From an uncultured Candidatus Saccharibacteria bacterium (GTDB taxonomy: Bacteria > Patescibacteriota > Minisyncoccia > SW-4-49-11): a stretch of 64,000 bases of DNA. The stretch lies in contig CAZWIJ010000006.1 in the NCBI GenBank assembly GCA_964633865.1, forward strand, positions 25,858-89,857, given 5' to 3'. Position numbers and translations under genes: made by a program. The notes beneath the pieces are model-generated. The model was not told where the DNA came from. It made no database searches and saw only the letters and a program-made list of their open reading frames with translations. Positions 10,082 through 49,628 of the stretch are shown here, one piece after another (position 1 is the first letter of the stretch; every line of letters starts with the position of its first letter).

Positions 10082-12172
10082 ATGAAAAAAGAACTTAAAA
10101 AAGATAATTTAAAAAAAAGAAGGAATAAAGGGTTTACATTATTAGAGATATTATTAGTAATAGCAGCAATAGGAATATTAGCAGGAATAGTAATAGTCGC
10201 AATAAATCCATTGAGACAAATAGCAAAAGTAAGACAAGCAGAGAGAGCAAGTGAGATAAATCAATTAAACAAAGCAATAGAGCAATATAATATAGCAGAA
10301 GGTAAATATCCAGATGCATTAACAATAGGAATAACAGAAGGAGAATATAGAGAGATATGTAATACAGGTAAATTAGATAGTGAAGCAGATTTAGTAGCAG
10401 AAGGAATAGATTGTAGTGATGATGGAGAAGGAAATGCATTATTAGACTTAAGAGTTTTAGTACCAACATATGTAGCAGAAATACCAAAAGATTCTGGATT
10501 ACAGTTTGGAATCGGAGAGAATATAATATATAAAATAGCAGAAGCAGCAGGAATAGATAGAACAGGATATTTGATAGGAGTACATCCAGAGAATAAAAAG
10601 GTAAGTATAAAAACAATAGAACCAGATATAAATGGAAATCCAATAGCACTAAATCCAATAGAAACACCAGATGGAGGAGGAGGTGGTGGAGACCCATTAT
10701 CTCCATCAGCCCCATGGGCTCCAATATTTGCGAAGTCACTTGGTAGTGAATTTAATGATGCAACAAACGACCTTGTAGTTGATAATCTTGGAAATAGCTA
10801 TATTATAGGTTCTTATAGTGGGAATCCATTCACATTTGGTAATGATATAAATTCCAATCCAATATCTATATCTCCTATAGGTAATATAAGTTCTTTTATA
10901 GCAAAATATGATAGTACGGGAGATCTAATTTGGGTAAAAAATATAGGAGGTACGAATGGAGAAGATAATGTAAGAAGTATAACTCTAGATAGTTCAAATA
11001 ATATTTATATTACAGGAGGATTTGGTTCATCCACACTTCCTTTAGGAAATGATATAAATAGTAATCCGATTACCCTAACAAATTCTGGGGCATCATTAGA
11101 CATTTTTATAATAAAATATAATTCGAATGGAGATTTAATATGGGGTAAAAGTTCTGGAAGTGCAGGTAGATCTGATATGGGAAATAGTATAGAATCTGAT
11201 TCTAGTGGTAATATTTATATAACTGGACAATATGCTTCTACAACACTAACCTTAGGAGAGGGAGGGAATCAAGTTAATTTGACTAATGCTGGTATATATA
11301 ATGATATATTTACTGCAAAATATGATACAGATGGAAATCTTTTATGGGCAAAGACTGCAGGTGGTACAGGATTCATTGATAATGGAGATAAATTAAGTGT
11401 AGATGATAGTGGAAATGTATATGTAGTAGGAACCTATAATTCTGCAACATTAAGTTTCGGTAATGATATAAATTCCAATCCAATATCTATATCTCCTATA
11501 GGTAATATAAGTTCTTTTATAGCAAAATATAATAGTACAGGAGATCTGCTATGGGCAAAAAAAATTGGAGGAAATGGTCCAGATGATATAAGAGGTATAA
11601 AAGTAGATTCTATAGGGAATTTATATATAGTAGGAATGTATAGATCTAATATATTAAGTTTTGGAAATGATATAAATGACAACCCAGTAAATCTAACTAA
11701 GACTGATGCTGACGATGCATTTATTGCAAGATATAATATTGATGGAGATTTAATTTGGTCAATCAATATTACTGGTTCAGGTGACCAACATGCAATATCA
11801 GTAGACATTGATAGTCAAAATAATATTTATATCACAGGATTTTTAGCAAATACTATAAATCTTGGAAATGATTTAGATAGTACCCCAGTTAATTTAACAA
11901 GTTTAGGTTATGCTAATGGATATATTGCAAAATACAATAATCTTGGTCAAGTGTTGAATTCTAAACTTATAAGTTCTGATTCTAGATCTGAAGGACAATT
12001 ATTATATGTCGGGTCGACTGGAGATGTTCATTTAGTAGGAATATTTAATTCATATCAATTAGATCTTGGAAATGATATAAATGAAAACCCATTATCAATA
12101 TTTAATCAAGGAGGAAATCCAGAAGGATATTCAGATGAAATATTCTTATTCAAATTAAATAAAGATTTTTAA
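10082..12172 (+). CDS. type IV pilin-like protein fused to SBBP-type beta-propeller repeats
   Basis: KGFTLLEILLVIAAIGI prepilin motif; conserved pilin module to ~aa 200; poly-Gly linker; repeated (S/D)SSGNIYITG...GDLIW.K units typical of SBBP beta-propeller repeat. Confidence 0.7.
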   Translation: MKKELKKDNLKKRRNKGFTLLEILLVIAAIGILAGIVIVAINPLRQIAKVRQAERASEINQLNKAIEQYNIAEGKYPDALTIGITEGEYREICNTGKLDSEADLVAEGIDCSDDGEGNALLDLRVLVPTYVAEIPKDSGLQFGIGENIIYKIAEAAGIDRTGYLIGVHPENKKVSIKTIEPDINGNPIALNPIETPDGGGGGGDPLSPSAPWAPIFAKSLGSEFNDATNDLVVDNLGNSYIIGSYSGNPFTFGNDINSNPISISPIGNISSFIAKYDSTGDLIWVKNIGGTNGEDNVRSITLDSSNNIYITGGFGSSTLPLGNDINSNPITLTNSGASLDIFIIKYNSNGDLIWGKSSGSAGRSDMGNSIESDSSGNIYITGQYASTTLTLGEGGNQVNLTNAGIYNDIFTAKYDTDGNLLWAKTAGGTGFIDNGDKLSVDDSGNVYVVGTYNSATLSFGNDINSNPISISPIGNISSFIAKYNSTGDLLWAKKIGGNGPDDIRGIKVDSIGNLYIVGMYRSNILSFGNDINDNPVNLTKTDADDAFIARYNIDGDLIWSINITGSGDQHAISVDIDSQNNIYITGFLANTINLGNDLDSTPVNLTSLGYANGYIAKYNNLGQVLNSKLISSDSRSEGQLLYVGSTGDVHLVGIFNSYQLDLGNDINENPLSIFNQGGNPEGYSDEIFLFKLNKDF

Positions 12173-12323: not shown

Positions 12324-12525
12324 TTACTTGTACCCACAAGAACATTCAGAAAAACAGCCTTTAAAAATTTGGAAATAGTGATGAGCCTCTTATATAATTA
12401 TATATGAGTTTTATCAGCTATAGCTATAATAAAGAGGGATCTTTAACAATTTAATTTAGGTAAAAATGCAATTTTACTTTAACTTTAACCAAAAAAAAGT
12501 GAATCAGAGTCTAAAAAGACGAGTT

Positions 12526-15512
<2,987 letters not shown>

Positions 15513-15640
15513 CTTTTTTGACATTGATTCACTAAATGTGAACTATAAAGTCAAAGTAAAAATTTACCTAAATTAAATTTAAAGTTCTAAGCTCAAAATT
15601 ACTAACCATATAGAGTAAAATCTGTATGGTTGGTGATAAA

Positions 15641-15757
15641 AATGTCTTTGTGATTTATTATAAAGGGGTACACCTGAAACATTCCGAACTCAGAAGTTAA
15701 GCCTTTATAAGTCGATGATACTCTTTATGGGGAAAGTAGATTATTGCAAAGACATTT
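15641..15757 (+). rRNA. rrf: 5S ribosomal RNA
   Basis: cctgaaacattccgaactcagaagttaagc matches the 5S helix III/loop C consensus (CCGAACTCAGAAGTGAAAC); terminal helix atgtctttg / caaagacat. Confidence 0.7.
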
Positions 15758-17594: not shown

Positions 17595-18182
17595 ATGTTA
17601 AATAAAAAATTAATAATATTAAGAAAGACATTACATTTAGCTCTACTGGGACCTTTTTCAATTTATTGGTATCTAAGATTTATACTGAGTAATGAAATAT
17701 ATGCTAATTATTTTATAGTAACTACTTTAATATTATTTTTTATATATGAATATATTCGGTTAGATTTAAATAAAAAAATAATTTTTTATACCCTAGTGAA
17801 AGAAAAAGAAAAAAATAATCCAGTCGATGGTTTAAATCTTTTAATTTCAGGAATTTTAGTAAGTTTACTTTTTGAACCGAGAATATCAATTTTAGTAATT
17901 CTTATCGCAATAATAGGAGATACAGTTGCTACACTAGGAGGTCTTTATGGTAAAAATAAAGTTTTTAAGGAGAGTAATAATAAAACAACATATGAAGGAC
18001 TAATCCTAACTTTTCTAGTAAATTTAATTTTATCAGTAATAATTTTGAAATTTATTTGGATTAGTGTTATAATATCATTAATGGCTGTTATTATAGAATC
18101 AATGGTTCAAAAAATAGATGATAATTTAGTAGTTCCAATTCTAACAGGTTATATAGCACATATTTTAATAAATATAAATTAA
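17595..18182 (+). CDS. hypothetical polytopic membrane protein
   Basis: 195 aa, 5-6 hydrophobic segments; family not recognisable. Confidence 0.3.
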   Translation: MLNKKLIILRKTLHLALLGPFSIYWYLRFILSNEIYANYFIVTTLILFFIYEYIRLDLNKKIIFYTLVKEKEKNNPVDGLNLLISGILVSLLFEPRISILVILIAIIGDTVATLGGLYGKNKVFKESNNKTTYEGLILTFLVNLILSVIILKFIWISVIISLMAVIIESMVQKIDDNLVVPILTGYIAHILININ

Positions 18183-18194
18183 CTAAATAATAGT

Positions 18195-19382
18195 ATGTTT
18201 TTCCAAAAAAAAATAAATAAAACTCCTATAGTTGTTGATATAGGTTCTAATGAAATCAAAGTAATAAAATATAATTATGATGAAAAAGTTAATAATATAG
18301 ATATCGTTGGATATGGTAATTTTAATACTCCTAAAAACTGTATTTTAAATGGTGTTATTAAAGAAAGTACACCTATATCAGAAGCAATTAGATCAGCTTA
18401 TATAGAAGCAAGAAATAAAGATGATGAAGAGGATCTAGTTATAGGCTTATCAGGAATTATGATAGATATTGAAAAAAAAGTTATTAATATAAAAAGACCT
18501 AAACCAGAATCTAAAATCTCTACTAAAGAATGGAATGCTATTTTAGAAGGAATAGAATCTGAGATGGATAAACAAGAATATAAATCGAATATCCTCCATA
18601 ATATTCAGATGGAGCTTTTCCAGAGTTCAATAGAAAATATTAATATAGATGATAGAAAGACATTTACTCCAATTGGAGAAATTGGTAGAGAGATTTCTAT
18701 AGATCTATTCAATGCTTATTATCCAGAGGAAAATGCAATTATGTTATCAAAAATATCAGAAGATTTAAATATGCCCATTGAAGCTATTTTTCACTCTTCT
18801 TATGGAGTAGGGCAGATTTTGATAGATAATCACCCTAAAAATAATCCTAGTATGATATTAGTAGATATAGGTTCTACTCATACAGATGTTACAATTTTAA
18901 ATGAAGGAAGTATTGATAAAGTAAGAAGCTTTAGTATAGGAGGAGATGTGTTTACTGCGAAATTATCTAAAGAATTAGAAGTTTCATTTGATGAAGCTGA
19001 GGTTTTAAAAAAGGAATATTCAGATGCTAAATTACCTAAAAAAATTACAGAAAAAATAACAGATATGTTAAAATCAGAAAGAGAATTATTGTTAGAAGGT
19101 ATAAATATTGTTCTTAATGATTTACCACCAACTTATATATTGCCAGACCATATAGTTTTGTTTGGAGGAGGGAGCCTTTTGTTAGGTATAAAAGAAATGG
19201 TGGAGTACAGTAATTGGTATAAAAAAATGAAGTTTACTCAAAGGCCTAAAGTTTCTATTTTTTATCCTAAAATATTGTCTCATATTATAGATAATACAAA
19301 CAGAGATATAAATACTCCAAGTATAACTCCTTTATTAGGATTAATTCACTTAGAAATATCGAAAAATAGGTTTAAATATTAA
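18195..19382 (+). CDS. actin-like ATPase of the FtsA/PilM family
   Basis: VVDIGSNEIKV... and VDIGSTHTDVTIL...FSIGGD phosphate-binding motifs in the order of the ASKHA fold. Confidence 0.5.
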   Translation: MFFQKKINKTPIVVDIGSNEIKVIKYNYDEKVNNIDIVGYGNFNTPKNCILNGVIKESTPISEAIRSAYIEARNKDDEEDLVIGLSGIMIDIEKKVINIKRPKPESKISTKEWNAILEGIESEMDKQEYKSNILHNIQMELFQSSIENINIDDRKTFTPIGEIGREISIDLFNAYYPEENAIMLSKISEDLNMPIEAIFHSSYGVGQILIDNHPKNNPSMILVDIGSTHTDVTILNEGSIDKVRSFSIGGDVFTAKLSKELEVSFDEAEVLKKEYSDAKLPKKITEKITDMLKSERELLLEGINIVLNDLPPTYILPDHIVLFGGGSLLLGIKEMVEYSNWYKKMKFTQRPKVSIFYPKILSHIIDNTNRDINTPSITPLLGLIHLEISKNRFKY

Positions 19383-19398
19383 TTTCAAAATAACTGTT

Positions 19399-20973
19399 AT
19401 GGATAATTTAAAAAACGAACACATAATATTAAGTAAAGGATTAAATTTATCTGAAATATTACTTACAATTAAAAAAGTAAGAAAAGATTCTTTTGTTGTT
19501 TATTTACCAGATTCTATGGAGATTTTATATAATCCAATAAATCTAAAAATATTTGTTAAAGAATTAAAATCAAACTTAAAAAATAAAAAAATAAATTTTT
19601 TTAGTACAGATTCACATTTAATTTCTTTGTTAAAAAGTGAGGGATTGGAAGCCCAAACTTCAGAATCAATTGATATTCCAAATGTTATTAATAAAGATAA
19701 AAGTGATTTAGGTGACTTTTTTAAGTTTGAAACACTTAACGAATTTGATGGAGAAAAAGATGCACTAATAAAAAAAGAAGATGATATAGATATTGTTAAA
19801 GAATTAGAAAGTTCATTTAAAGATGAAAATATAATTAAAACAAATAAAAAGAATAGATTAAGAGGGGTTTTTTATTTGATCGGCTTTATATTAATAATAG
19901 TGTTAGCTATATTTGGAACACTTTATTCTGCAAAAGCTAGTATAAAGTTATTTCCTAATACTACTTTTTTGACTAAAGAAATGGATTTAGTTTTTAATTT
20001 AAATAAAGATAATTTGACAGAAGATCAAATTTATGTAGAAGAAAAAAAAATAGAATCAGAAGTTGAGCTAGAAGTAAATTCTACAGGATCTCTTTCTAAT
20101 GATGGTACTAAAGCACAAGGAGAGGTTATTTTGAAAAATGAAACTAATAGTAATCAAACATTGGTAGACCAAACTAGATTATTATCAGAAGGCAATAAAA
20201 TATATAAAATATCAAAGAATATAACTATACCAGCAGATGGAGAAGTTAAAGTCACAATGATAGCTGAAAACTCTGGAAATGAATATAATATTCAATCAGG
20301 GAAACTTCTTATTCCTGGATTTGAAAAAGATAAAGAAAAATATGAAAAAATATATGCTATTTTAGATACTCCTATAAATAATGGATCATCTAATGGTCAA
20401 AAAGTTGTAACTGAAGATGATATAAATCAAGCTAAAATTCAACTAAAAGAAAACTTAGCTAAAGATTTAAATGAAAAAGCACTTGAAGTAGAAAAAGAAG
20501 GATTAAGTGTATTAGATATAGGTTCAACATTAAATGATATTGTATATACATTTGATGTTACTACTGGTCAACAAATTGATAAATTTACAATGAGAGCAAA
20601 ATCAAGCTTAACCTCTTTAGTTTATACAAATACAGAGGTGGAGGATTATATCAAAACTAATATAGAGAAAGAATTAGAGGAAAGACAGTCAATAATGCCT
20701 AGTATCAAAGTTGTATTTTCTTTACCGGATAGTATATCTGAAGATAAAATTATTAATTCTAAAGCAAACATAGATTATACAATAAGTGATAAAATTAATA
20801 CAGAAGAATTAAGTAAAAATTTTATATATAAAAATAAGTCATTTGTAGAAGATTTTCTAAATACTAATTATGACTTAAAAAACTATAATATAGAGTTAAC
20901 TCCATCATTCTTACCTATAATGCCTATATTAAGTGAAAATATAGTAGTTACTATTGAGGAAAATAATAATTAA
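19399..20973 (+). CDS. hypothetical bitopic membrane protein (cytoplasmic N-domain, single TM, large extracytoplasmic domain)
   Basis: 524 aa with one hydrophobic helix at ~aa 155-178; no recognisable family. Confidence 0.3.
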   Translation: MDNLKNEHIILSKGLNLSEILLTIKKVRKDSFVVYLPDSMEILYNPINLKIFVKELKSNLKNKKINFFSTDSHLISLLKSEGLEAQTSESIDIPNVINKDKSDLGDFFKFETLNEFDGEKDALIKKEDDIDIVKELESSFKDENIIKTNKKNRLRGVFYLIGFILIIVLAIFGTLYSAKASIKLFPNTTFLTKEMDLVFNLNKDNLTEDQIYVEEKKIESEVELEVNSTGSLSNDGTKAQGEVILKNETNSNQTLVDQTRLLSEGNKIYKISKNITIPADGEVKVTMIAENSGNEYNIQSGKLLIPGFEKDKEKYEKIYAILDTPINNGSSNGQKVVTEDDINQAKIQLKENLAKDLNEKALEVEKEGLSVLDIGSTLNDIVYTFDVTTGQQIDKFTMRAKSSLTSLVYTNTEVEDYIKTNIEKELEERQSIMPSIKVVFSLPDSISEDKIINSKANIDYTISDKINTEELSKNFIYKNKSFVEDFLNTNYDLKNYNIELTPSFLPIMPILSENIVVTIEENNN

Positions 20974-20978
20974 AATAT

Positions 20979-21398
20979 ATGGCAGATATAATTATTGGAT
21001 TAATATTTATAATAGTATTTATACTTATATTTATATTTCCAACAAAATTAGCTGAAATATTTGAAAATATGGGTATTTTAGATTTTGGATTAGAAAAAAG
21101 TGGTACTAGAAAGTTAACAACAATTAGATTAATAAGTTTAATTAGTATATTTATAACAATAGTTTTTGTTAGTGGGAAAACTGAACTCATAGTTGGTTTT
21201 ATAGGAGTTGTTATTGGATTTGTAACAATGAAATATTCTTTAGTAGTTCATAACATTATAGGTTCAGGTAAATGGTTTAAAGGTGATAATGGGATTAAGT
21301 TAGCTGGATTAATTATTTTATTAGTATCATTACTTTGGATGGTTGGTCTTTCTCAACAAATATTAGTAGACTTTACTGAAGATACATTTAGAAATTAA
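20979..21398 (+). CDS. hypothetical membrane protein
   Basis: 139 aa, 4 hydrophobic segments. Confidence 0.3.
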   Translation: MADIIIGLIFIIVFILIFIFPTKLAEIFENMGILDFGLEKSGTRKLTTIRLISLISIFITIVFVSGKTELIVGFIGVVIGFVTMKYSLVVHNIIGSGKWFKGDNGIKLAGLIILLVSLLWMVGLSQQILVDFTEDTFRN

Positions 21399-25547: not shown

Positions 25548-26003
25548 TTAAGGAATTATGAAGGATTGTTCAGATAATCCTTCTACAAAAGTTGTATTAT
25601 CAAAGTTATTTACCCCCCCAACACCAATATCTCCATTTGAATTTTTTATAATAAAGTAATATGTTCTATTATTTTGATTCGGATCTTTTGGAATTTCTTT
25701 TATATATGCTGGTTTTAATATTGATAAATCTACTAAATTAGTACATATGGAGTCACTGTCAAGGCAGATTTCATTTATAGAATTATCAGATAAGTTCTCA
25801 ATTGATGATGGGTATTGCTTGTTTTTTAAAGTGTATTGCTCTATGGCTGTGTAAATTTTTAACACATTGGATTTATTTACATTATCTTTGGATTGGATTA
25901 AAATAGAGTTTGGGTCAATAGATGTAAAAATAATACCCATTAATATACCTATAAGAGCTATACTTAATAATACTTCTAGTAAAGAAAAAGCTTTTTTTGT
26001 CAT
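25548..26003 (-). CDS. type IV pilin-like protein (short paralog of the pilin module)
   Basis: MTKKAFSLLEVLLSIALIGIL prepilin motif; body (IYTAIEQYTLKNKQYP...NEICLDSD...LKPAYIKEIPKDP) aligns with the N-terminal module of the three giant pilin fusions. Confidence 0.65.
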   Translation of the reverse strand: MTKKAFSLLEVLLSIALIGILMGIIFTSIDPNSILIQSKDNVNKSNVLKIYTAIEQYTLKNKQYPSSIENLSDNSINEICLDSDSICTNLVDLSILKPAYIKEIPKDPNQNNRTYYFIIKNSNGDIGVGGVNNFDNTTFVEGLSEQSFIIP

Positions 26004-26158
26004 GATTTTTAAATTATTCTTACATAATATAATTATATCATTATTCAATTGATATTGAAAATATTAATATATTATTTTTAAAATTGTATTAATCCTTATT
26101 CACATAAATTAGAAAATAAGGTATAATAGAAATGTATCTTATTTTAAATCACTAGCCA

Positions 26159-26839
26159 ATGGCAAATAAAAAAATACAACCAAGGAATAATCCTAAAAAT
26201 AGTACACAGAAATATCTTGATATAGAAAGTATTCAGGACAGTGTTGTCATATTAAAAACAGGGGGGCTTAGAGCTGTACTTATGTGTTCTTCAATTAACT
26301 TTGATTTGAAATCTAACGAAGAACAAGATTCTATTATCTATGCTTATCAGGGATTTCTAAATTCAATTGATTATCCTGTACAGATACAAATTACATCTAG
26401 AGTCTTAAATGTGTCAGGATACCTGAATTATTTAAAAGAATTTGAAGAGAATCAACCTAATGATCTTTTGAGAGCTCAAACAATTGAATATTCTAAATTT
26501 ATTAAGGAAATGGTAGATGGATCAAATATAGTAAATAAGATTTTTTATATAGTTATTCCTTTTGAACCAATAGAAAAACCTGAAGGATTACTTGATAAAA
26601 TAAGTTCTGGTTTCTCTCCAAAATCAGATAATTTAGTATATAGTAAAGAAGATTTTGAGAAATATAAGACACAGCTTTGGCAAAGAGTAAATAATATAAT
26701 GTATGGATTAAAGAGATCTGGAATATATATGACTCCTCTTAATACACAAGAATTAATAGAATTATTTTACTCAATTTATAATCCAGACAGTATTCCAGTA
26801 GAATCTCTTAGTAATGTAGAAACTTTAGATATAACTTAA
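26159..26839 (+). CDS. VirB4/TraE-like N-terminal domain protein (separate ORF)
   Basis: SVVILKTGGLRAVLMCSSINFDLKSNEEQDSIIYAYQGFLNSIDYPVQIQI resembles the N-terminal region of Gram-positive VirB4-like conjugation ATPases; stop 2 nt before next ORF in a different frame. Confidence 0.4.
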   Translation: MANKKIQPRNNPKNSTQKYLDIESIQDSVVILKTGGLRAVLMCSSINFDLKSNEEQDSIIYAYQGFLNSIDYPVQIQITSRVLNVSGYLNYLKEFEENQPNDLLRAQTIEYSKFIKEMVDGSNIVNKIFYIVIPFEPIEKPEGLLDKISSGFSPKSDNLVYSKEDFEKYKTQLWQRVNNIMYGLKRSGIYMTPLNTQELIELFYSIYNPDSIPVESLSNVETLDIT

Positions 26840-26841
26840 AC

Positions 26842-28692
26842 ATGTTTAAAAAAAATAAAATCAATCAAATAAGTGTTACTAGCAAAAATTTAGATTTAGA
26901 ATACCTTCGAGGTCAGAATAATCTAAAAGATTTTTTAGCACCTGCTTCAATTCTAGTTGATTCTAAATATCTTAAAATAGGTACAAAGTATGCAAGAACA
27001 ATTTTTGTTATGACATATCCTAGATTTTTGGTTACAGGTTGGTTTTCTCCTTTAATAAATTTGGATTATGTTATGGATGTTTCAATGTTTTTATACCCTA
27101 TGGATAGTGGAGTAATTCTTAAAACTTTAAGAACACAAGTAACTAGATTCCAAGCATCAATGTCATCAGCTTATGAGAAAGGTTTGGTTAGGGATCCTGT
27201 TGTAGAGACAGCATATAAAGATGCTGAGAACTTAAGAGATAGGTTGCAACAAGGAACAGAAAAGTTCTTTAGATTCGGATTGTATATGACAATATATGCA
27301 GATACAGAAAAACAAATAGACAAATATATTATTGATGTAAATAATATATTACAAACTAGAATGGTATATTCCAAACCTTGTTTATTTCAATCTGAACAAG
27401 GTTTCAAGTCAACAATGCCATTATTAATAGATGAATTGGATATTGGTAATAATTTAAACACGGCTCCATTATCAACTACATTTCCTTTTATATCTGCTAA
27501 TATTTCATCTAATAAAGGTATTTTATATGGAATTAATAGACATAATAATAGTTTGATTTTATTTGATAGATTTTCCATGGAGAATGCAAATGAAGTTATT
27601 TTCGCCAAATCAGGAGGTGGAAAAAGTTATTTGGCAAAGTTAGAAATATTGAGACATTTAATGTTGGGTGTGGAAGTTATTGTTATAGATCCAGAAAATG
27701 AATATTCATATTTAACAGAAGCTGTAGGAGGAACCTTTATCAAGATAGCTTTATCTTCTCGTCAGCATATTAATCCATTTGATTTGCCAGAGCCAAGATC
27801 AGATGAATCTTTATCAGATTTGATGAAGTCTAATATAGCAGATTTAACAGGTATGCTTAGGCTTATGTTGCAGGGAGCAAATTCCAAGGATAAATTCACT
27901 TCTGAGGAAGAGGCAATTATTGATCAAGCACTTTATGAGACATATGCTTCTAAAGATATTAATTTAGATACAGATACTCTTGAGGGAAAATCTACTCCAA
28001 CTTTTTCAGACCTAGAAAATATTTTGAGGAACATAGATGGAGGTGATATGTTAGCTTTAAGATTGTCAAAATATACAACAGGGAGCTTTGCTGGATTTAT
28101 TAATGAACCGACTAATATAGATTTTCAAAATCAGTTAATTGTATTCAATACAAGAGATATGGAAGATGAATTACAATCATTAGCTATGTTTTTGATTACT
28201 CAATTTATTTGGAAAGAGGTTAGAAGAACATTGAAAAAAAGAATATTAGTAGTTGATGAAGCTTGGATTATGATGAAACATGATGCTCCAGCTTCTTTCT
28301 TATTTTCTTTAGCAAAGAGAGCTAGAAAATATTATTTAGGATTAACTACAATTACCCAAGACATAGCTGATTTTCTAAATTCAGATTATGGAAAGGCAAT
28401 TCTAACAAATTCTTCTATGCAGATTCTTTTAAAACAATCACCAGCTTCTATAGATCTAATCAAACAAACATTTTACCTAACAGAAGAAGAGAAATATCTT
28501 TTATTAGAATCTGATGTGGGAGAAGGTATCTTCTTTGCAGGATTAAAGCATGCTGCAATCAAAGTAGTTGCATCTTATGGTGAAGATCAACTTATAACTT
28601 CAGATCCTGAACAAATACTAAAAATGAGACAAATTAAAAGTAGTCAAAATAATCAAAATTCTGAATCAGATCCATTCTCAATTAATTTATAA
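26842..28692 (+). CDS. VirB4/TraE/ConE-like type IV secretion ATPase (ATPase portion)
   Basis: Walker A FAKSGGGKSYLAK, Walker B VVDEAWIMM, and upstream TIFVMTYPRFLVTGWFSPL block characteristic of VirB4-family proteins. Confidence 0.6.
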   Translation: MFKKNKINQISVTSKNLDLEYLRGQNNLKDFLAPASILVDSKYLKIGTKYARTIFVMTYPRFLVTGWFSPLINLDYVMDVSMFLYPMDSGVILKTLRTQVTRFQASMSSAYEKGLVRDPVVETAYKDAENLRDRLQQGTEKFFRFGLYMTIYADTEKQIDKYIIDVNNILQTRMVYSKPCLFQSEQGFKSTMPLLIDELDIGNNLNTAPLSTTFPFISANISSNKGILYGINRHNNSLILFDRFSMENANEVIFAKSGGGKSYLAKLEILRHLMLGVEVIVIDPENEYSYLTEAVGGTFIKIALSSRQHINPFDLPEPRSDESLSDLMKSNIADLTGMLRLMLQGANSKDKFTSEEEAIIDQALYETYASKDINLDTDTLEGKSTPTFSDLENILRNIDGGDMLALRLSKYTTGSFAGFINEPTNIDFQNQLIVFNTRDMEDELQSLAMFLITQFIWKEVRRTLKKRILVVDEAWIMMKHDAPASFLFSLAKRARKYYLGLTTITQDIADFLNSDYGKAILTNSSMQILLKQSPASIDLIKQTFYLTEEEKYLLLESDVGEGIFFAGLKHAAIKVVASYGEDQLITSDPEQILKMRQIKSSQNNQNSESDPFSINL

Positions 28693-28697
28693 ATATT

Positions 28698-29813
28698 ATG
28701 ATTCCTTCTAAGTTAAAAAAAATTCTCATAATAGTTTCAATAATATTAACAATCATAGTAACAATTTTTATTATATATTTTTTATTTTTTAGATCTGGGG
28801 ATGATAACAATATTAACTCAACAATAAATTCACCCGTTGAAGATAATAATAATGATAAAAAAGCATCTATTTTAATTGAAGATGAAATTTTAGATTACAC
28901 AATAAGTCCTTCTAATGAAATAACTTATTATAAAAAATCAAATGGGCATACATATACAACAAATAATCAAGGATCTACTCCTAAACTGATAAGTGATTTT
29001 AATTTAAATAATTTATATAAAGTTGAATGGGCTCCTTCAAAACCATTTGTACTAATTAATTTAGATTCTAAATTTAGTGTATATAATTATATTGAAAAGA
29101 AGTCTTTTCCTTTTCCAAATGATATTTTTGAGGTAGGGTTTTTATCTAATAATAAAATATATTATGTTATCAAAAATGATATAGACTTATATGACATAGT
29201 TGTTTCTAATGAAGATGGATCCAATAAAACCCCAATTATGGTGATGATGACAGACAAAGTTTTATTGGATTCTGTACCACTAACAACAAATATAAGTCAA
29301 ATACTATCACCTCCAAGTGCATTTAGAGAATCTCCTTTAAGAATAATTGACACAATCCAAAAAACAGCAAGTTCTATCTTGGAACCAAAATATGGTTTGA
29401 ATGTATCTTGGTCTCCGACTGGAGAGAATGGCATAATAACATATAGTAGCGAAAAAGGAGGTAAAACTATGTATATGTCGCTTATAGACAACAAAGGAGT
29501 AGAACAAATTTCTTTTAAGCCAATAGGGACAATAGCAGAAAAGATAACTTGGTCTCGTGATGGCAATATTGTTTATTTTACACAACCATTAGTGCCTAAT
29601 AACAAGGTAATGCCTGATGACTATTATGATAATAAAGTGGGTAAATTTTATGAAGCTTTATATAAAATAGATTTAACTTCATTTAAAGTCGAAATATTAT
29701 CAAAAAATATAGGTTTAGTTGATTCAAGAGACTTAAAGTTGAGTGCATCTGGTAAGGAAATATTTTTTATAAATAAGAATGATAATAAACTCTATAAATA
29801 TTCTATTGAATAA
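28698..29813 (+). CDS. membrane-anchored PD40/TolB-like beta-propeller protein
   Basis: N-terminal TM; repeated WSP.G/WSRDG...Y motifs (VSWSPTGENGIITYSS, ITWSRDGNIVYF, VEWAPSKPFVLI). Confidence 0.4.
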   Translation: MIPSKLKKILIIVSIILTIIVTIFIIYFLFFRSGDDNNINSTINSPVEDNNNDKKASILIEDEILDYTISPSNEITYYKKSNGHTYTTNNQGSTPKLISDFNLNNLYKVEWAPSKPFVLINLDSKFSVYNYIEKKSFPFPNDIFEVGFLSNNKIYYVIKNDIDLYDIVVSNEDGSNKTPIMVMMTDKVLLDSVPLTTNISQILSPPSAFRESPLRIIDTIQKTASSILEPKYGLNVSWSPTGENGIITYSSEKGGKTMYMSLIDNKGVEQISFKPIGTIAEKITWSRDGNIVYFTQPLVPNNKVMPDDYYDNKVGKFYEALYKIDLTSFKVEILSKNIGLVDSRDLKLSASGKEIFFINKNDNKLYKYSIE

Positions 29814-29858
29814 TTGATTATTTCTTAAAGATAATATATATGCTTATAAATTAAAATA

Positions 29859-30221
29859 ATGAACAAAAAAATAATTGAAGAAATTAGATTGTTTTATAGT
29901 ATAATTATATTTGTTAATGTAATTATTATTGTGAGTAGTTATACACTAAGATTTATTGAAAAAGAAGATTTTAATATGTGGCTAATGTTTAGTTCAGGAG
30001 TAGTTGCTATTTATGGGATATTTTTGTTTATAACCTTATTATCATTTTGGAAAGATAAAAGTTTAAAAGTATTGATTGTATTCAGTTTTTATTTATTAGT
30101 TATTATAGGTACCTTAACAGTATTATTAAGTCCAGTAAAAGTTCCTATAATGTCATTTGTAGGAAGTATTTTAATGGCAATTAAATTTACTGAGATTGAT
30201 AGTTTAAAGAATGATAGTTGA
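29859..30221 (+). CDS. hypothetical small membrane protein
   Basis: 120 aa, 4 hydrophobic segments. Confidence 0.3.
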   Translation: MNKKIIEEIRLFYSIIIFVNVIIIVSSYTLRFIEKEDFNMWLMFSSGVVAIYGIFLFITLLSFWKDKSLKVLIVFSFYLLVIIGTLTVLLSPVKVPIMSFVGSILMAIKFTEIDSLKNDS

Positions 30222-30470
30222 AGATTTATTTTATATATGATACAATATATATATTAGGAATAAATACATTGTATATCTATGAAATCAAAATTAGAATCTG
30301 AAAATGAATTAAAAATCAATATTGTAGATACAAGTTCTCATATCACAGAAGAGGTGAAAGTTGTTTATGATAAAGATAAGAAAAGAGACATAAAATTAGA
30401 AGATAATTCTAAAATAAAAGTATCCTTAGATAATCTTCATAAAAAGAAGTAAATAATAATAATTACAACC

Positions 30471-41231: not shown

Positions 41232-42308
41232 ATGTTTAATTTCAATGCCAATTTTAATAAATCTTCTGTTGGAATAGATATTGGTACTCAATCTGTTAAG
41301 ATAGTAGAAATACAAAATAAAGATAAAGTCTATAATATATCAAATTATGCTATATGGGATGATGATCTAGATCATACTATACAGGAAAGAAATTCTAATT
41401 ATGAAAGTACAGCAGAATATATATCAGAAATAATTCTAAATTTATTAAAAACAAGTGACATTCATACTAAAGATTGTTATATAAGCATACCATCTTACTT
41501 AGCATTTTCAGCTTTGATAGATGTTCCTATTATGTCAATTGAAGAATTGACTAAAGCTATTCCACTTGAAGCTAGTCAATATATACCTACATCTATTGAT
41601 GAGGTTCAGATTGACTGGATTGTTCTTGGGAATTCATTACAACCTAATTCTCTAGAAATATTATTGATAGCTATACCTAATGAAGTAATTAATAAGTATT
41701 TAACAATTGCTAATTTGTTAAACTTAAATATTAAAGGTTTTGAATTAGATATATTTTCTCAAATAAGATCAACTAATTTGAATAATGTTCCAACTCTAAT
41801 TATAGATATAGGTGCAAGAAGCTCTATGGTAAGTATTGTTAATGAAAAACAACAACTTTTGATAACTAAATCATTTGATTTTGGTGGAAATCAAATAACT
41901 AATCAAATTATGTTATTTAATGAAGGTATTAGTATCAAAGAAGCAGAAACTCTTAAAAAGCAAAATGGATTAATCGGTGAGAATCAATCAGTTGTTGATA
42001 TAATAAAGCAAACTTATAATAACTTTATATTACAAAATGTTGATGTAGTAATAAATGATTATTATAAAAAACATACTAAAAATATAGAGGAAGTATTAGT
42101 AGTAGGAGGAACTTCTCGTATGAAAGGAATATCAGATTATACTGGAAGTACTTTGAAGCAAATTGATAATAGACTCTCCAATATAAAGACATCTGTTGGT
42201 TCACCTAATAATTCTATTAAAATCACTACAGATATACAAAATATGTTTGTAGAAAAAATATGGCAAGATCTTTCCCTTGCAATTGGTATAGCTCTAAAAA
42301 AGAATTAA
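41232..42308 (+). CDS. pilM: type IV pilus assembly protein PilM
   Basis: VGIDIGTQSVKIVEI... actin-like ATPase, first gene of pilMNO-pilB operon. Confidence 0.65.
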   Translation: MFNFNANFNKSSVGIDIGTQSVKIVEIQNKDKVYNISNYAIWDDDLDHTIQERNSNYESTAEYISEIILNLLKTSDIHTKDCYISIPSYLAFSALIDVPIMSIEELTKAIPLEASQYIPTSIDEVQIDWIVLGNSLQPNSLEILLIAIPNEVINKYLTIANLLNLNIKGFELDIFSQIRSTNLNNVPTLIIDIGARSSMVSIVNEKQQLLITKSFDFGGNQITNQIMLFNEGISIKEAETLKKQNGLIGENQSVVDIIKQTYNNFILQNVDVVINDYYKKHTKNIEEVLVVGGTSRMKGISDYTGSTLKQIDNRLSNIKTSVGSPNNSIKITTDIQNMFVEKIWQDLSLAIGIALKKN

Positions 42309-42311
42309 TAT

Positions 42312-42866
42312 ATGAAATCTAAAAAAACAGAAAATATATTAACATTTATACCAAAAGATCAAAAAACAATCTTTGTTCCTAAAATTAAAAGAACAGAATT
42401 TAATTATATAGAATTAAGTATTATTTCTATAATTATATTAATTTTAAATTTTGGTATTCTTTATGCTGTAAAAGAATTTACATTGAGTAAAGATATTAGT
42501 GTTATAAAATCTCAGATATCAGAAATAGATTCCAAAAATCAAAATATTTATCCAGCAGAAGGGATTGTAGAAACAATAAAAGGCTATTCTGGTCTTTTAG
42601 AGTCTCAATATAAGTTGAATATAGCTATGACTGATATTCAGAAAAGAATTAATTCTGGATCAAAAATTAGTTCTTTATCTTATATTAAAGATACTAAGAC
42701 TTTAGAATTATCATTAGAATTACCTAATATAGGAGTAATAGCATCACAATTAGAAGAGTTTAGAAAGTCAGAATATATTTCTACTGTTAATTATCAAGAA
42801 ATAGGTATAGGAGATAAAAATACTGCTGGTAATGTGTCTACAAAATTCACTATAATTTTACAATAA
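42312..42866 (+). CDS. pilN: PilN-like bitopic membrane protein
   Basis: Short cytoplasmic N-terminus, single TM, coiled/periplasmic domain; operon position after pilM. Confidence 0.45.
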   Translation: MKSKKTENILTFIPKDQKTIFVPKIKRTEFNYIELSIISIIILILNFGILYAVKEFTLSKDISVIKSQISEIDSKNQNIYPAEGIVETIKGYSGLLESQYKLNIAMTDIQKRINSGSKISSLSYIKDTKTLELSLELPNIGVIASQLEEFRKSEYISTVNYQEIGIGDKNTAGNVSTKFTIILQ

Positions 42867-42867
42867 T

Positions 42868-43455
42868 ATGAATGAAAGACAAAAATTATATGATATATTG
42901 TTAGTAGTTTTGAGTTTGGTATTAGTCTACTTAGGATATTCTTTTTGGAGTGATCAATACAAAGTATCTTTAGAGGAGAAAACAAAGTTAAGTAATGAAT
43001 TATCTATAAAAAAAGAATACACAGAAATTCAAGATATAGCTGAGTTTAATAAAAAAATATCTGAATTTACTCCTCCAGGTGATCCTAAAGAAAATATATT
43101 AGCTCCATTATCTGAAATAGAAAAAAAATCTGGGGCTAAAATAACAAAATTAGAGGTAAAAGAAGGTGTGGTGAAAACTGATGCTAAAACTGAATCGGAA
43201 GAGATGTTAACAGAAGATATCCCAGCTTCTGATACATCAGTAGAATCAAATTCAGTTGAAACAGTAAAAGAATTAAAATTTTTAGAGTCTCAAGTTGAAA
43301 TCCAAATTACTGGAAGATTTGGCAGTATCAATTCTTTCGTGCAGTATTTAGAAGAAAATTCTAGAATTATGGATATCATTCAGTTTAATTATACAGTTCA
43401 AGATAAAAGTGACGAAATAGAAGCTACAATAATTATGAAAGTATATGCAAAATAA
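42868..43455 (+). CDS. pilO: PilO-like bitopic membrane protein
   Basis: Single N-terminal TM + coiled-coil region; operon position. Confidence 0.4.
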   Translation: MNERQKLYDILLVVLSLVLVYLGYSFWSDQYKVSLEEKTKLSNELSIKKEYTEIQDIAEFNKKISEFTPPGDPKENILAPLSEIEKKSGAKITKLEVKEGVVKTDAKTESEEMLTEDIPASDTSVESNSVETVKELKFLESQVEIQITGRFGSINSFVQYLEENSRIMDIIQFNYTVQDKSDEIEATIIMKVYAK

Positions 43456-43615
43456 GTTAAACAAAAATAAGGATAAAATTATAATAATTATTTTAGTATT
43501 AGCAAATATAATAGCAATACTTTATATAATGTACACTACATTTTTTATACAAATATTGCAAGAAGAGGTTAATCTAAATTCAGAAATAGAGATAATTAAC
43601 AAGAATTTTAAATAA
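43445..43615 (+). CDS. unannotated small membrane protein (56 aa)
   Basis: ORF overlapping pilO stop, single TM helix (IIIIILVLANIIAILYIMYTTFFI), fills the pilO-pilB gap. Confidence 0.25.
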   Translation: MQNKLNKNKDKIIIIILVLANIIAILYIMYTTFFIQILQEEVNLNSEIEIINKNFK

Positions 43616-43622
43616 TATATAT

Positions 43623-45344
43623 ATGATAATAGATTATATAAAAATATTAGGTTTATTAAAAGATAGATATTCTGATAGATTTATTAGTTATGAGAATATT
43701 GATGAATCTCAGAATGAGCAGGTAAAAAAATACATAACAGAAAATTTTTCTGAAAAAGAAATTCTAGAAGTATATGGAGAAACAATTAATATTCCTTTTA
43801 TAGAATTAATTCCTAATGAAATACCTCAAAATCTATATAGTGTTTTTGAAGAAAAAATTTTGCAAGGATATCAGTTCGTTCCCTTTGACATACAAAATGA
43901 TAAAATATGCATAGCAATAGTAGATCCATATAATTATAATGCTATTCAGGCTATCAAATTTGTTCTTCGTGATAAAGGGGTAGATTTTAAATTATTTTTA
44001 ACTACAAGAAATGACTTAAATTCAGTTTTTAATGCTTTTCAGAATATAAGTGAAGAAGTAAAAAAGAGTCTTTCAGAATTAGATGAAGAGAAACTAAAGA
44101 AAAAAGGAGATGATCTAATAGAAGAAGTAAAACCAGATAAAGAAGATGTAGAAGTTGCTCCAATTATAAAAATAGTATCAGTTATACTAAAAAATGCAGT
44201 TGAAGGAGGAGCTTCAGATATTCATATAGAAGGTATAAGTAAAGGAGTAAGAGTAAGATTTAGAGTAGATGGAATTTTACATAATACTTTGACAATTCCA
44301 AAAGATGTTTATCCAGCAGTGGTTGCTAGAATAAAGATATTATCAAACCTTAAAATAGATGAGACAAGAAGACCTCAAGATGGAAGATTCTCTATTCTAG
44401 AAAATCAAAAAAAGATTGATTTTCGTGTATCGACATTTCCAACTGAATTTGGAGAAAAAGTAGTACTTAGAATTCTGGATACTTCTAAAGGAATAGCTAC
44501 AATCGATAAACTAGGATTTATAGGCCCAAAAGCAAGTATAATCAAAAAATCTGTAGATAAACCATTTGGTATGGTATTAGTAACAGGACCAACAGGATCA
44601 GGAAAGTCTACGACTTTGTATACCTTACTTAATATGGTTAATGACGAAGAAATAAATATAGTTACACTGGAAGATCCGGTAGAGTATTTTATGGATGGAA
44701 TCAATCAGTCACAAGTAAGAACAGAAATAGGATATTCATTTGCATCAGGATTAAGATCAATATTGAGACAAGATCCGGATATAATAATGGTAGGGGAGAT
44801 TCGAGATGGAGAGACAGCTAGCCTAGCAGTTCAGTCTGCTTTGACAGGTCATTTAGTTTTTTCAACTCTACATACTAATGATGCTCCAGGTTCAATCCCA
44901 AGATTAATAGATATGGGAGTGGAGTCATTTTTATTAGGCTCATCTTTAGAGCTTATTATAGCACAAAGACTAGTAAGAACACTTTGTGATAAATGTAAAA
45001 AACAGGTAAAAATAGATTCTGGAGTAAAAGAATATATCACAAAAGCTTTATCTAACTTAGATCCAAGTTATATTAGTAAGTATTACAAGGGAGATTTTGA
45101 TAGTCTATATGAACCAGTTGGTTGCTCCTCTTGTAAAAATGGATTTAAAGGTAGAACTGTAATCTTTGAAATAGTTCAAATATCAGAAGAACTACAATAT
45201 ATAATAGAAAAAAATCAGGGAGAAGATAAGATTAGAGAAAATTTAGCACAAAACAATTTTGTAAGTCTAAAGCAAGATGGTATCTTTAAAGTTCTAAATG
45301 GTAGAACATCTTTGCAAGAATTATTAAATACAGTTGATATTTAA
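43623..45344 (+). CDS. pilB: type IV pilus assembly ATPase PilB (GspE family)
   Basis: Walker A VLVTGPTGSGKSTTLY, Asp box, His box, tetra-Cys motif (CDKC...CSSC), N-terminal GSPII_E_N domain. Confidence 0.85.
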   Translation: MIIDYIKILGLLKDRYSDRFISYENIDESQNEQVKKYITENFSEKEILEVYGETINIPFIELIPNEIPQNLYSVFEEKILQGYQFVPFDIQNDKICIAIVDPYNYNAIQAIKFVLRDKGVDFKLFLTTRNDLNSVFNAFQNISEEVKKSLSELDEEKLKKKGDDLIEEVKPDKEDVEVAPIIKIVSVILKNAVEGGASDIHIEGISKGVRVRFRVDGILHNTLTIPKDVYPAVVARIKILSNLKIDETRRPQDGRFSILENQKKIDFRVSTFPTEFGEKVVLRILDTSKGIATIDKLGFIGPKASIIKKSVDKPFGMVLVTGPTGSGKSTTLYTLLNMVNDEEINIVTLEDPVEYFMDGINQSQVRTEIGYSFASGLRSILRQDPDIIMVGEIRDGETASLAVQSALTGHLVFSTLHTNDAPGSIPRLIDMGVESFLLGSSLELIIAQRLVRTLCDKCKKQVKIDSGVKEYITKALSNLDPSYISKYYKGDFDSLYEPVGCSSCKNGFKGRTVIFEIVQISEELQYIIEKNQGEDKIRENLAQNNFVSLKQDGIFKVLNGRTSLQELLNTVDI

Positions 45345-45414
45345 TCTAAAAATAACATTGCATAAATATAATCATATAGTATAATATAGATATATGAATT
45401 AATCAGAAAAATAT

Positions 45415-45792
45415 ATGAAAAAAAGAATACTATTGGTGGAAGATGATGAGTTTATTACTCAGATGTACTCTCGGAAATTAGAAGAAGAAGGATATGAAGT
45501 TCTTAGTTTTCCTGATGCAACAGAAGCAAAGAAGTCTTTACAAGAAGGAGTTATGGAAATAAATTTAATTTTATTAGATATACTTTTACCTACAATTTCA
45601 GGTTATGATTTTTTGAAATGGATAAAAAGTTATGATCAATATATAGATATTCCAGTTATTATGTTGAGTAATTTATCAGGACAAGTAGACATAGATAAAG
45701 GTTATAATTTGGGAGCAGTAGACTTTATTGTGAAGTCTAACTATACTCCAAATGAAGTAGTAAGAAAAGTAAAAAATTATATAGATAAATAA
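45415..45792 (+). CDS. single-domain response regulator (CheY/PilH-like) embedded in pil operon
   Basis: ILLVEDDEFI...LLDILLP receiver motifs; paralog of 21459-21836. Confidence 0.7.
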   Translation: MKKRILLVEDDEFITQMYSRKLEEEGYEVLSFPDATEAKKSLQEGVMEINLILLDILLPTISGYDFLKWIKSYDQYIDIPVIMLSNLSGQVDIDKGYNLGAVDFIVKSNYTPNEVVRKVKNYIDK

Positions 45793-45802
45793 AGTTAAAA
45801 AT

Positions 45803-46873: not shown

Positions 46874-46885
46874 TAATAAAAATAT

Positions 46886-48109: not shown

Positions 48110-48113
48110 ACAT

Positions 48114-48365
48114 ATGGAAAGTTTTATACAAAGTAGAAAATATTTATTTTGGTATGTAAAAGATTTAAGTGGATTAAGTAGTAATGCTGTTGTTGAGGGT
48201 ATATTAAATTTAGGTGATTGGCAAGATTTTCAAGATTTAATAAAAATTTTAGGACTAAAAAAAATTTCACAGATTTTTTTAGAAGATATCAAGAAAGATA
48301 GAAATAACTATAGGCCAGAAATAAAACATTATTTTGAATTATATTTTAAAAAATATGTTAAATAA
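48114..48365 (+). CDS. small hypothetical protein overlapping downstream NTase gene (candidate cognate partner)
   Basis: 83 aa ORF overlapping 48334 ORF by 32 nt. Confidence 0.3.
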   Translation: MESFIQSRKYLFWYVKDLSGLSSNAVVEGILNLGDWQDFQDLIKILGLKKISQIFLEDIKKDRNNYRPEIKHYFELYFKKYVK

Positions 48366-48975: not shown

Positions 48976-49006
48976 AAAAACGATCAACCTGTGGATAACT
49001 CAAAGA

Positions 49007-49035
49007 TTGACAAAAATAAACTAATATGATACAAT
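49007..49035 (+). promoter_or_regulatory. strong candidate promoter TTGACA-17-TACAAT upstream of pilin genes
   Basis: Exact -35, 17-nt spacer, near-consensus -10. Confidence 0.5.
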
Positions 49036-49200
49036 AAGCATGTATTAGAAATTAAATAATAAAATTAAACTTATGACAAAGAAGGGAGGTGAAACTCACA
49101 ATTGAATAATATAAACAATTTTAAAAAACAAACTAAATCATCAGAATTAGTTTGTAAAGACAATAATATAATTAATAATAATTTAAGTAAAGTAAATTTT

Positions 49201-49614: not shown

Positions 49615-49628
49615 GATAATAATTAATT

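Follow-up and report, generated by a model that had tools for sequence, protein, structure and literature searches.

In T4SS of the pIP501/pGO1 type, the VirB4 protein (TraE or TrsE) is itself a short form and is preceded by a separate TraD or TrsD, and we know of no propeller gene in the pGO1/pSK41 or pIP501 operons. The TrsD-TrsE pair of pGO1/pSK41 and the TraD-TraE pair of pIP501 (MPF-FATA, pGO1 subclass) both place a protein of ~200-230 aa that remotely resembles the VirB4 N terminus just upstream of a short VirB4, as does the locus described here. Unlike this locus, the pGO1/pSK41 and pIP501 systems are plasmid-borne and conjugative, with a relaxase and a coupling protein.

Chromosomal T4SS with VirB4 are widespread in the Patescibacteria (CPR). 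VirB4 occurs in 2417 of 3035 Patescibacteria genomes, in a clade nested in MPF-FATA, and TrsD is the most abundant accessory component, with 2272 homologues, of which 1664 lie next to virB4 (Quinonero-Coronel et al. 2025, PMC12102498). The same study describes TrsD as remotely homologous to the N terminus of VirB4, in agreement with our own tests, and reports that relaxases are mostly absent from Patescibacteria T4SS and that intra-class inheritance dominates. TrsD is given there as essential in Ca. Southlakia epibionticum, for whose T4SS Wang et al. 2023 is cited (PMC12102498). Guglielmini et al. 2014 do not use the name TrsD in their main text.

The window analysed here (the whole stretch of DNA under study, 64 kb in length) shares with the Patescibacteria-clade T4SS a chromosomal virB4, a trsD immediately upstream and the lack of a relaxase or coupling protein (T4CP) nearby (Table 1). 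The ksgA/dnaA setting of the published systems is also like that of the window's relatives, in which the cassette adjoins ksgA and lies near dnaA/dnaN, as in PMC12102498. ORF1 and ORF2 are very probably the TrsD-VirB4 pair of the chromosomal T4SS typical of Patescibacteria. The split VirB4 is the standard published TrsD-VirB4 architecture, to which the window adds one more member. A preliminary description of this DNA had suggested a non-canonical device; this device is the Patescibacteria T4SS already described in PMC12102498.

Table 1. Features of the cassette and its immediate surroundings (positions within the window).
Feature	Position	Strand	Remarks
Divergent prepilin gene	25548-26048	-	gene callers start at ATG 26003, giving 151 aa
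Candidate sigma-70-like promoter, TTCACA-17-TATAAT	26099..26127	+	~32 nt upstream of ORF1
ORF1, TrsD / "TraC-like"	26159-26839	+	226 aa; TAA stop at 26837-26839
Junction of ORF1 and ORF2, TAA-AC-ATG	26837..26844	+	read directly from sequence
ORF2, short-form VirB4-family T4SS ATPase	26842-28692	+	616 aa; rest of N-domain and RecA-like C-terminal ATPase domain
ORF3, membrane-anchored extracytoplasmic 7-bladed beta-propeller (predicted)	28698-29813	+	371 aa
ORF4, small membrane protein	29859-30221		120 aa, ~4 hydrophobic helices

A VirB4 ATPase encoded by two genes

ORF2 had been assigned to the VirB4 family from its Walker A motif (AKSGGGKS, residues 255-262), its Walker B motif (ILVVDE, residues 468-473) and the TIFVMTYPRFLVTGWFSPL block at residues 53-71, and this assignment is borne out by a curated family model. 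The match to NF045971 (VirB4-like conjugal transfer ATPase, CD1110 family) spans positions 184-728 of 752 and reaches 348.2 bits, above the curated cut-off of 325. Further matches were obtained to VirB4_plasma, TraC-F-type and TIGR00929 VirB4_CagE (5e-78 to 2e-34) and to Pfam P-loop_TraG (5e-24), and 36 homologues share the Walker A and B residues without exception. Residues 219-586 align with the VirB4 C-terminal domain of PDB 4AG5 (E 1.8e-41), and the C-domain also matches TrwK weakly. The HerA central domain (DUF87) scored 38.9 bits on ORF2 against 348 for the VirB4 model, and no FtsK family was found among its profile matches, which supports the placement of the predicted protein with VirB4, and with neither HerA nor FtsK, as had been proposed. 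The search returned at least 8000 homologues of ORF2, the best 120 of which are all 586-657 aa long, and the taxon labels of the closest are almost all Patescibacteria or Parcubacteria-group MAGs.

The likeness of the 226-aa ORF1 to the VirB4 N-terminal domain, also pointed out earlier, is confirmed by profile matches, fold and fused relatives, which identify the predicted product of ORF1 as the detached first ~200 residues of that domain. Among the NCBIfam models, ORF1 matches VirB4_plasma at positions 91-240 of 894 (1.7e-8) and TrsD/TraD (NF041427) at positions 9-143 of 201 (E 3.2e-7), the latter with 30.4 bits, far under the family cut-off of 200. The name of the TrsD/TraD family fits a separate TraD/TrsD ahead of a short TraE/TrsE. 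TraE, which the preliminary description had used as a full-length VirB4 for comparison, is unsuited to that purpose, since TraE/TrsE is a short form with a separate TraD/TrsD. The PF26593 "TraC-like" label of ORF1 comes from precomputed annotations only, where it is attached to an identical sequence (P0001) and to 119 of the 120 listed homologues; a local Pfam scan of ORF1 and three homologues gave nothing useful. The fold of the TrwK N-domain was recovered for ORF1 by fold comparison, not by sequence searches of the PDB, which returned no VirB4 either with ORF1 alone or with its 41-sequence profile. Homologues of ORF1 form 1258 clusters, the best 120 being all stand-alone proteins of 145-252 aa, and a profile search with the ORF1 family gave 4071 matches, nearly all short.

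Taken as a pair, ORF1 and ORF2 possess a VirB4-type N-terminal domain and, as expected from the preliminary description, tile a full-length VirB4: on the CD1110 model of 752 positions, ORF1 covers 12-120 (conju_CD1110, 8.9e-7) and ORF2 184-728. By these profile coordinates, the break between the two falls within the classical VirB4 N-terminal domain, at about position 120-184. The profile of full-length VirB4 proteins such as R388 TrwK (PDB 7O41/7O42), CD1110 of CTn2 and ICEBs1 ConE is thus covered by the two ORFs together; unlike those proteins, the window's VirB4 consists of two polypeptides, not one, with no VirB3 partner encoded nearby.

A natural, ancient and conserved split

As the preliminary description had noted, and as can be read in the sequence, the stop codon of ORF1 lies 2 nt ahead of the ATG of ORF2, in a different frame. 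Three origins had been put forward for this arrangement, of which the natural domain split stands, whereas a frameshifted gene and programmed recoding are contradicted by 82 related loci and by dN/dS values of 0.015-0.03. A gene of ~200-250 aa immediately 5' of virB4 and on the same strand is found in the window and in these 82 loci, and a stop codon separates trsD from the virB4 directly downstream in all 82. Programmed frameshifting or read-through at 26837-26844, which would yield a single full-length VirB4, might be read from two ORFs only 2 nt apart that jointly correspond to such a protein, and fused homologues do exist, though rarely: in P0436 (797 aa), residues 3-215 are TrsD and residues 226-793 resemble ORF2 (53% identity), and P0457 (898 aa) is fused likewise, with the TrsD domain N-terminal to the ORF2-like ATPase. 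We nevertheless consider recoding very improbable. The frame offset from trsD to virB4 is 0 in 22, 1 in 33 and 2 in 27 of the 82 loci, the stop-to-start gap has a median of 5 nt and ranges from -23 to +445 nt, and the trsD stop codons are mixed (62 TAA, 12 TAG, 8 TGA), so that no single conserved recoding mechanism is possible; the junction GATATAACTTAAACATG is also without a visible slippery heptamer. Extremely improbable, too, is a frameshifted pseudogene, or a sequencing or assembly indel in a once-intact virB4, for which nothing speaks except the two adjoining ORFs in different frames. The split is universal among the relatives, and many independent contigs, drawn from several archives, record the same or near-identical products: in a public collection, up to 24 contigs carry the 226-aa product of ORF1 or a near-identical version (same 90% cluster), and at least 13 to 24, from several sources, carry the 616-aa product of ORF2. 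The 98%-identical relative L089 keeps the TAA + 2 nt + ATG junction at a dS of ~0.6-0.85, with a dN/dS of 0.027 for TrsD and 0.015 for VirB4 on the two sides of it; both fall below the values for ribosomal protein S6 (0.09) and SSB (0.065) from this genome pair, and purifying selection on the two genes is very strong. The TrsD/VirB4 split is natural, ancient and conserved.

Because stop and start are only 2 nt apart, translation of trsD and virB4 is probably coupled. The candidate promoter upstream of ORF1 was the top site of the scan (11 of 12 matches), in an AT-rich region where the count of sigma-70-like sites was not above that of shuffled sequence, and it is at best a weak candidate. A terminator scan gave nothing relevant.

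A propeller gene at the end of the operon

The AF2 model of ORF3 (pLDDT 89.6) consists of a transmembrane (TM) helix (residues 4-30), a disordered linker (32-50) and a propeller (57-369). The earlier characterization of this propeller as PD40/TolB-like is sound at the level of the fold, where ORF3 resembles beta-propellers of the TolB/PD40 and S9-peptidase types, and fails for the TolB N-terminal domain and for a Pfam match of its own. ORF3 itself matched no propeller family in Pfam, the PD40 cut-off being narrowly passed by 2 of the 4 database homologues scanned, and by the combination of Pfam PD40 repeats and a TolB N-terminal domain it is not a TolB/PD40 member. Nor does it have a peptidase domain, and it differs from the TolB/PD40 types in carrying an N-terminal TM anchor in place of a signal peptide. 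Its dN/dS against L089 is 0.117.

The inclusion of the membrane-anchored propeller in the module, already suggested in the preliminary description, is upheld by its conserved linkage to virB4. In 44 of the 57 non-reduced loci with sufficient flanking sequence, a propeller homologue is encoded 3' of virB4 in the same orientation, and the gene directly follows virB4 in 8/8 loci of the window's own clade. In related Parcubacteria-group genomes, the propeller gene closes the T4SS operon as a conserved member; neither the text of PMC12102498 nor the available part of its supplements mentions a membrane-anchored propeller gene. On the sole basis of this conserved operon linkage, ORF3 can be regarded as a part of the apparatus, and it may act outside the membrane as a scaffold, or as a binder of the cell wall or host surface, within that same apparatus.

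A locus reduced to three genes

Genes for PrgI/VirB3, a VirB6-like protein and a VirB2-like pilin flank virB4 in related Parcubacteria-group genomes, with PrgI/c2 present in 71/71 of the non-reduced loci, a VirB6-like gene in 45/53 and a T4SS pilin in 45/57. The window's clade, unlike these other loci, has none of the three near virB4. This clade comprises 8 loci whose VirB4 is 67-98% identical to that of the window and is monophyletic in 100/100 neighbor-joining (NJ) bootstraps, and all 8 show only TrsD-VirB4-propeller (pattern 00110000), usually with ksgA directly upstream; in L092, the sister locus, the operon is complete. The locus in the window's sub-clade is reduced to TrsD-VirB4-propeller. 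Searched with profiles that drew on 21 to 71 related loci, the 64-kb window showed no PrgI/VirB3, VirB6-like or VirB2-like gene, no PrgI motif was found in its six frames, and no T4SS genes were found in a further ~10 kb upstream and ~1.4 kb downstream of the window on its own contig. The assemblies of the reduced clade were not found in the available part of the supplementary tables of PMC12102498.

In the reading of the cassette as a Patescibacteria T4SS, the two chains would come together, without a covalent link, as a hexameric motor of the VirB4 kind on the cytoplasmic side of the membrane. If R388 TrwK is a guide, the N-domain of this motor may contact membrane partners and the C-domain may hydrolyse ATP to drive pilus or channel assembly or substrate passage. 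Such a system would most likely serve a host-dependent (epibiotic) lifestyle, as in cultivated Saccharibacteria, and not conjugation, because no relaxase or coupling protein lies nearby, the neighbours are housekeeping genes and the GC content is the same as that of the surroundings.

That the cassette instead belongs to an integrated conjugative element (ICE) transferring DNA is highly unlikely, even though the best curated family of ORF2 (CD1110/CTn2-type) and TrsD both stem from Firmicutes conjugative elements. In keeping with the preliminary description, the annotated ORFs of the window include no recognisable VirD4/T4CP, VirB6 or relaxase, nor does the ~10 kb upstream flank, and the same ORFs and flank held no recognisable TcpA, integrase or other integration functions. 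The GC content of the cassette (0.28) equals that of the window (0.276), its neighbours there are genes for a ribosomal protein, SSB and two-component proteins, its position near dnaA is syntenic in the relatives, and the published rarity of relaxases and predominance of intra-class inheritance likewise argue against an element of this kind. The absence of the usual membrane partners from the locus, the window and the ~10 kb flank counts, in turn, against an ordinary T4SS, and the cassette may be a repurposed remnant, in which the PrgI/VirB3, VirB6-like and VirB2-like genes were lost genome-wide and TrsD-VirB4 and the propeller do a different job without a canonical channel. We regard this alternative as possible but doubtful. 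It is favoured by the three-gene clade beside a sister with the full operon, by the frequency of the partner genes in other loci together with the lack of a PrgI motif in the window, and by the strong constraint on all three retained genes. A metagenome scan points the same way: in its 80 PrgI loci, PrgI was linked to TrsD-VirB4 wherever the flank was long enough to show it, and with 0/80 separated from that pair, relocated copies look unusual; none of the 80 lay on contigs of the reduced clade. Against it, the missing genes may lie elsewhere, the inspected DNA amounting to ~75 kb of the window's genome and to 16-22 kb surrounding the other loci, T4SS genes are dispersed in some classes (PMC12102498), and VirB6-like proteins are so divergent (18-26% identity) that they could be missed. 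That this monophyletic Parcubacteria-group lineage has lost its channel and pilin genes genome-wide and keeps only the very strongly constrained two-chain VirB4 motor and the propeller, as a three-gene machine without a recognisable T4SS channel, we hold to be unlikely.

Two observations on the Patescibacteria T4SS go slightly beyond the known literature, namely the propeller as a conserved terminal gene of the T4SS operon in related Parcubacteria-group genomes, and a clade with only TrsD, VirB4 and the propeller at the locus. Should the remaining components prove absent from the genomes as a whole, the minimum of partners that a VirB4 motor needs could be read from this clade, and the propeller would stand out as the key partner of the motor outside the cell.

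Genes adjoining the cassette

Two further neighbours that the preliminary description had counted as parts of the module fall outside it. For the 120-aa membrane protein ORF4, phmmer and profile searches of ~90 loci found no homologue except in the 98%-identical L089; by this distribution ORF4 is lineage-specific and lies outside the conserved module, and the lack of homologues beyond L089 also speaks against it as a VirB3/PrgI-like or c14-like partner. The divergent prepilin matches GspG/ComGC/N_methyl models, not T4SS_pilin, and adjoins the cassette only in L089, being absent upstream of it in L001-L004, L090, L091 and L093. By these matches it is a prepilin of the type IV pilus/T2SS type, and together with the unconserved linkage they speak against a T4SS pilin; elsewhere in the window, the genes of a type IV pilus (T4P) form a complete cluster.

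Organization of the locus

The window is a segment of bacterial chromosome with low G+C content (~27%) and many housekeeping genes, in which the ORF arrangement of the preliminary description is present. The trsD-virB4-propeller cassette (ORF1 to ORF3) is co-oriented and tightly spaced, with gaps of 2 and 5 nt, and a terminator scan found no terminator within it; the best promoter-like site upstream is a tentative candidate. In the 25 nt 5' of each of the four plus-strand ORFs (26134-26158, 26817-26841, 28673-28697, 29834-29858), no purine-rich stretch resembling a Shine-Dalgarno sequence can be seen. The window also holds an unlinked rRNA operon, whose 23S gene is a full-length match without a large insertion.

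Coordinates of features in the window
Feature	Position	Strand	Description
Phage_holin_4_2-family gene	3423-3788		small membrane protein
secG	3793-4008
Large N_methyl-leader proteins	6745-8358; 10082-12172; 54027-56009		extracellular domains fused
23S and 5S rRNA genes	12517-15752		no adjacent 16S
PilM_2/FtsA-like region	17595-21398
PilM_2/FtsA-like gene	18195-19382		second in window
Prepilin gene	25548-26048	-	gene callers' start ATG 26003
Promoter-like site	26099-26127
ORF1 (TrsD)	26159-26839	+	226 aa, stop TAA
ORF1-ORF2 junction			2 bases (AC) between TAA and ORF2 start, read from sequence
ORF2 (VirB4)	26842-28692	+	616 aa, frame differs from ORF1
ORF3 (propeller)	28698-29813	+	371 aa
ORF4	29859-30221	+	120 aa, ~4 TM helices
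Small ORF	30279-30452		57 aa
Type IV pilus cluster	41232-50403		complete
AbiEii-family toxin gene	48334-48975		inside pilus cluster
ksgA (RrnaAD)	53071-53916		27 kb from cassette

A VirB4 ATPase encoded by two genes

ORF2 carries the TIFVMTYPRFLVTGWFSPL block and the Walker A and Walker B motifs, all invariant among homologues, and scores 348 bits against the NCBI CD1110-type VirB4 model (cut-off 325 bits; positions 184-728 of 752), whereas HerA-type similarity is marginal (DUF87, 39 bits). Other VirB4/TraC models also match strongly, as does the solved VirB4 C-domain 4AG5 over the C-terminal 370 residues (E 1.8e-41). Judged by its sequence, ORF2 is a VirB4-family ATPase rather than a HerA, as originally read. 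ORF1 matched positions 12-120 of the CD1110 model, 91-240 of a mycoplasma VirB4 model and 9-143 of a TrsD/TraD model (E 1e-6 to 1e-8), and its family has the precomputed Pfam label PF26593 'TraC-like'; on the CD1110 model, ORF1 and ORF2 occupy successive parts. When 1.8 billion representative proteins were searched with a profile, two strong matches were fusions with an ORF1-like domain N-terminal to an ORF2-like ATPase (P0436, 797 aa; P0457, 898 aa; 52-53% identical to ORF2). The profile matches, the Pfam label and these fused relatives are independent lines that bear out the suggested resemblance to the VirB4 N-terminal domain, and ORF1 is the N-terminal part that ORF2 lacks. Many TrsD-family proteins (P0320-P0452) are 300-440 aa long and carry extensions, and some Moranbacteria VirB4 ORFs are longer at the N terminus by ~170-230 aa, which lie between TrsD and the core of VirB4 (related loci L053, 7257-9764, and L034, 1526-3808).

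The split had been ascribed to a natural domain division, a frameshifted gene or programmed recoding. It is no assembly accident, because the ORF2 product and the ORF1 product or near-identical versions are recorded on many contigs from several archives in a public collection. The best 120 of 1258 ORF1 homologue clusters are all stand-alone (145-252 aa), and the best 120 of at least 8000 ORF2 homologues are all 586-657 aa. Across 82 related loci, taken from public assemblies and from species-representative genomes, most of the latter being MAGs of the Parcubacteria group and other Patescibacteria, a TrsD-like ORF lies directly 5' of virB4 on the same strand. Since this ORF always ends in a stop codon, the stop-to-start gap varies (median 5 nt) and all three possible frame offsets occur (22, 33 and 27 times), a conserved frameshift or read-through mechanism is excluded. 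The TAA + 2 nt + ATG junction is kept in L089, a 98%-identical relative, against which (dS ~0.6-0.85) dN/dS is 0.027 for ORF1 and 0.015 for ORF2, both below neighboring ribosomal protein S6 and SSB. The two-gene VirB4 is thus shown to be under strong constraint, and from sequence comparison we conclude that the split is natural and ancient, leaving neither frameshift nor recoding.

The 'split VirB4' is a known architecture to which the window adds one member, as TrsD next to virB4 has been published: VirB4 occurs in 2417 of 3035 Patescibacteria genomes, as a clade nested in MPF-FATA, and 1664 of 2272 TrsD homologues adjoin virB4 (Quinonero-Coronel et al. 2025, PMC12102498). The same study reports that Ca. 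Southlakia epibionticum cannot do without TrsD, that most of the systems lack a relaxase, that T4CP genes are usually encoded elsewhere, and that the T4SS cluster is often near dnaA/ksgA. A 2025 review terms the Patescibacteria T4SS essential for epibiotic growth, and a 2026 preprint proposes that T4SS pili and VirB4 take part in acquiring macromolecules from the host.

A reduced T4SS locus

Clustering the ORFs of 84 loci gave, for the related Parcubacteria-group loci, a usual gene order of a VirB6-like polytopic protein (~700-790 aa), a small protein, PrgI/VirB3 (PF12666), TrsD, VirB4, a 3-TM protein, a 335-aa secreted protein, T4SS_pilin (PF18895) and the propeller, consistent with rows of Table S3 in PMC12102498. 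At loci with enough flank outside the window's clade, PrgI/c2 was present in 71/71, VirB6-like in 45/53, the T4SS pilin in 45/57 and the propeller in 44/57. Eight loci (the window, L089, L001, L002, L004, L090, L091 and L093) hold only TrsD-VirB4-propeller; their VirB4 proteins are 67-98% identical to the window's, and they form a clade in 100/100 NJ bootstraps. The operon is complete at the sister locus, L092. The T4SS component set is therefore reduced at locus level in this clade. ksgA usually lies directly upstream of trsD (L002, L004, L090, L091, L093), and at L090 and L091 this locus is close to dnaA/dnaN. In the window, 27 kb separate ksgA from the cassette, which adjoins rpsF-ssb-rpsR-rpsT, so the cassette was rearranged in the window's lineage. 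In L093 (GCA_018609785.1), a V/A-type ATPase operon (L093 1-7728) lies just upstream of ksgA-trsD-virB4.

The ORF3 model (pLDDT 89.6) shows a 7-bladed beta-propeller joined by a disordered linker to a TM helix at the N terminus, with database matches to generic propellers only. Its homologues follow virB4 in every reduced-clade member and in most other loci are found 1-5 kb 3' of it, which upholds the membrane-anchored propeller as part of the module. We propose that translation of ORF1 and ORF2 is coupled, that TrsD and VirB4 associate without covalent linkage as a hexameric, VirB4-like motor with the propeller as its extracytoplasmic partner, and that the system most probably serves host interaction, not conjugation. 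The main alternative is that the reduced clade's VirB4 motor operates without a canonical channel. Profiles found no PrgI/VirB3, VirB6-like protein or T4SS pilin in the 64-kb window, no PrgI motif occurs in its six frames, ~11 kb of extra flank on the contig holds no T4SS genes, and in a metagenome scan no PrgI gene turned up away from TrsD-VirB4. Both the locus-level reduction and the propeller, as a conserved partner, merit a genome-wide check.

Neighboring pilin and membrane protein genes

The split survives from the initial T4SS-like module, but its pilin and ORF4 do not belong. From ATG 26003 the pilin has a short MTKKA leader, then FSLLE; it matches N_methyl, GspG and ComGC models and is a type IV pilus/T2SS-type prepilin. 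Only the window and L089 have it beside the cassette; it is absent from that position in L001-L004, L090, L091 and L093. ORF4 and the 57-aa ORF have homologues among these loci only in L089; with a dN/dS of 0.089, ORF4 is a real but lineage-specific gene. Elsewhere, a Phage_holin_4_2-family gene precedes secG.

The type IV pilus cluster encodes PilM (PF11104), two small proteins, PilB (MshEN + T2SSE), a response regulator, PilT, PilC (T2SSF) and two N_methyl pilins. Additional pilin-domain proteins occur elsewhere in the window. The three large N_methyl-leader proteins, one with T2SSG and six DUF5122 beta-propeller repeats, one with faint SBBP repeats and one with an fn3 domain, resemble giant pilins or adhesins of the pilus tip. 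Two proteins of 524 and 139 aa, both lacking Pfam matches, are encoded after the second PilM_2/FtsA-like gene, and this region may represent a second platform module for pilus assembly.
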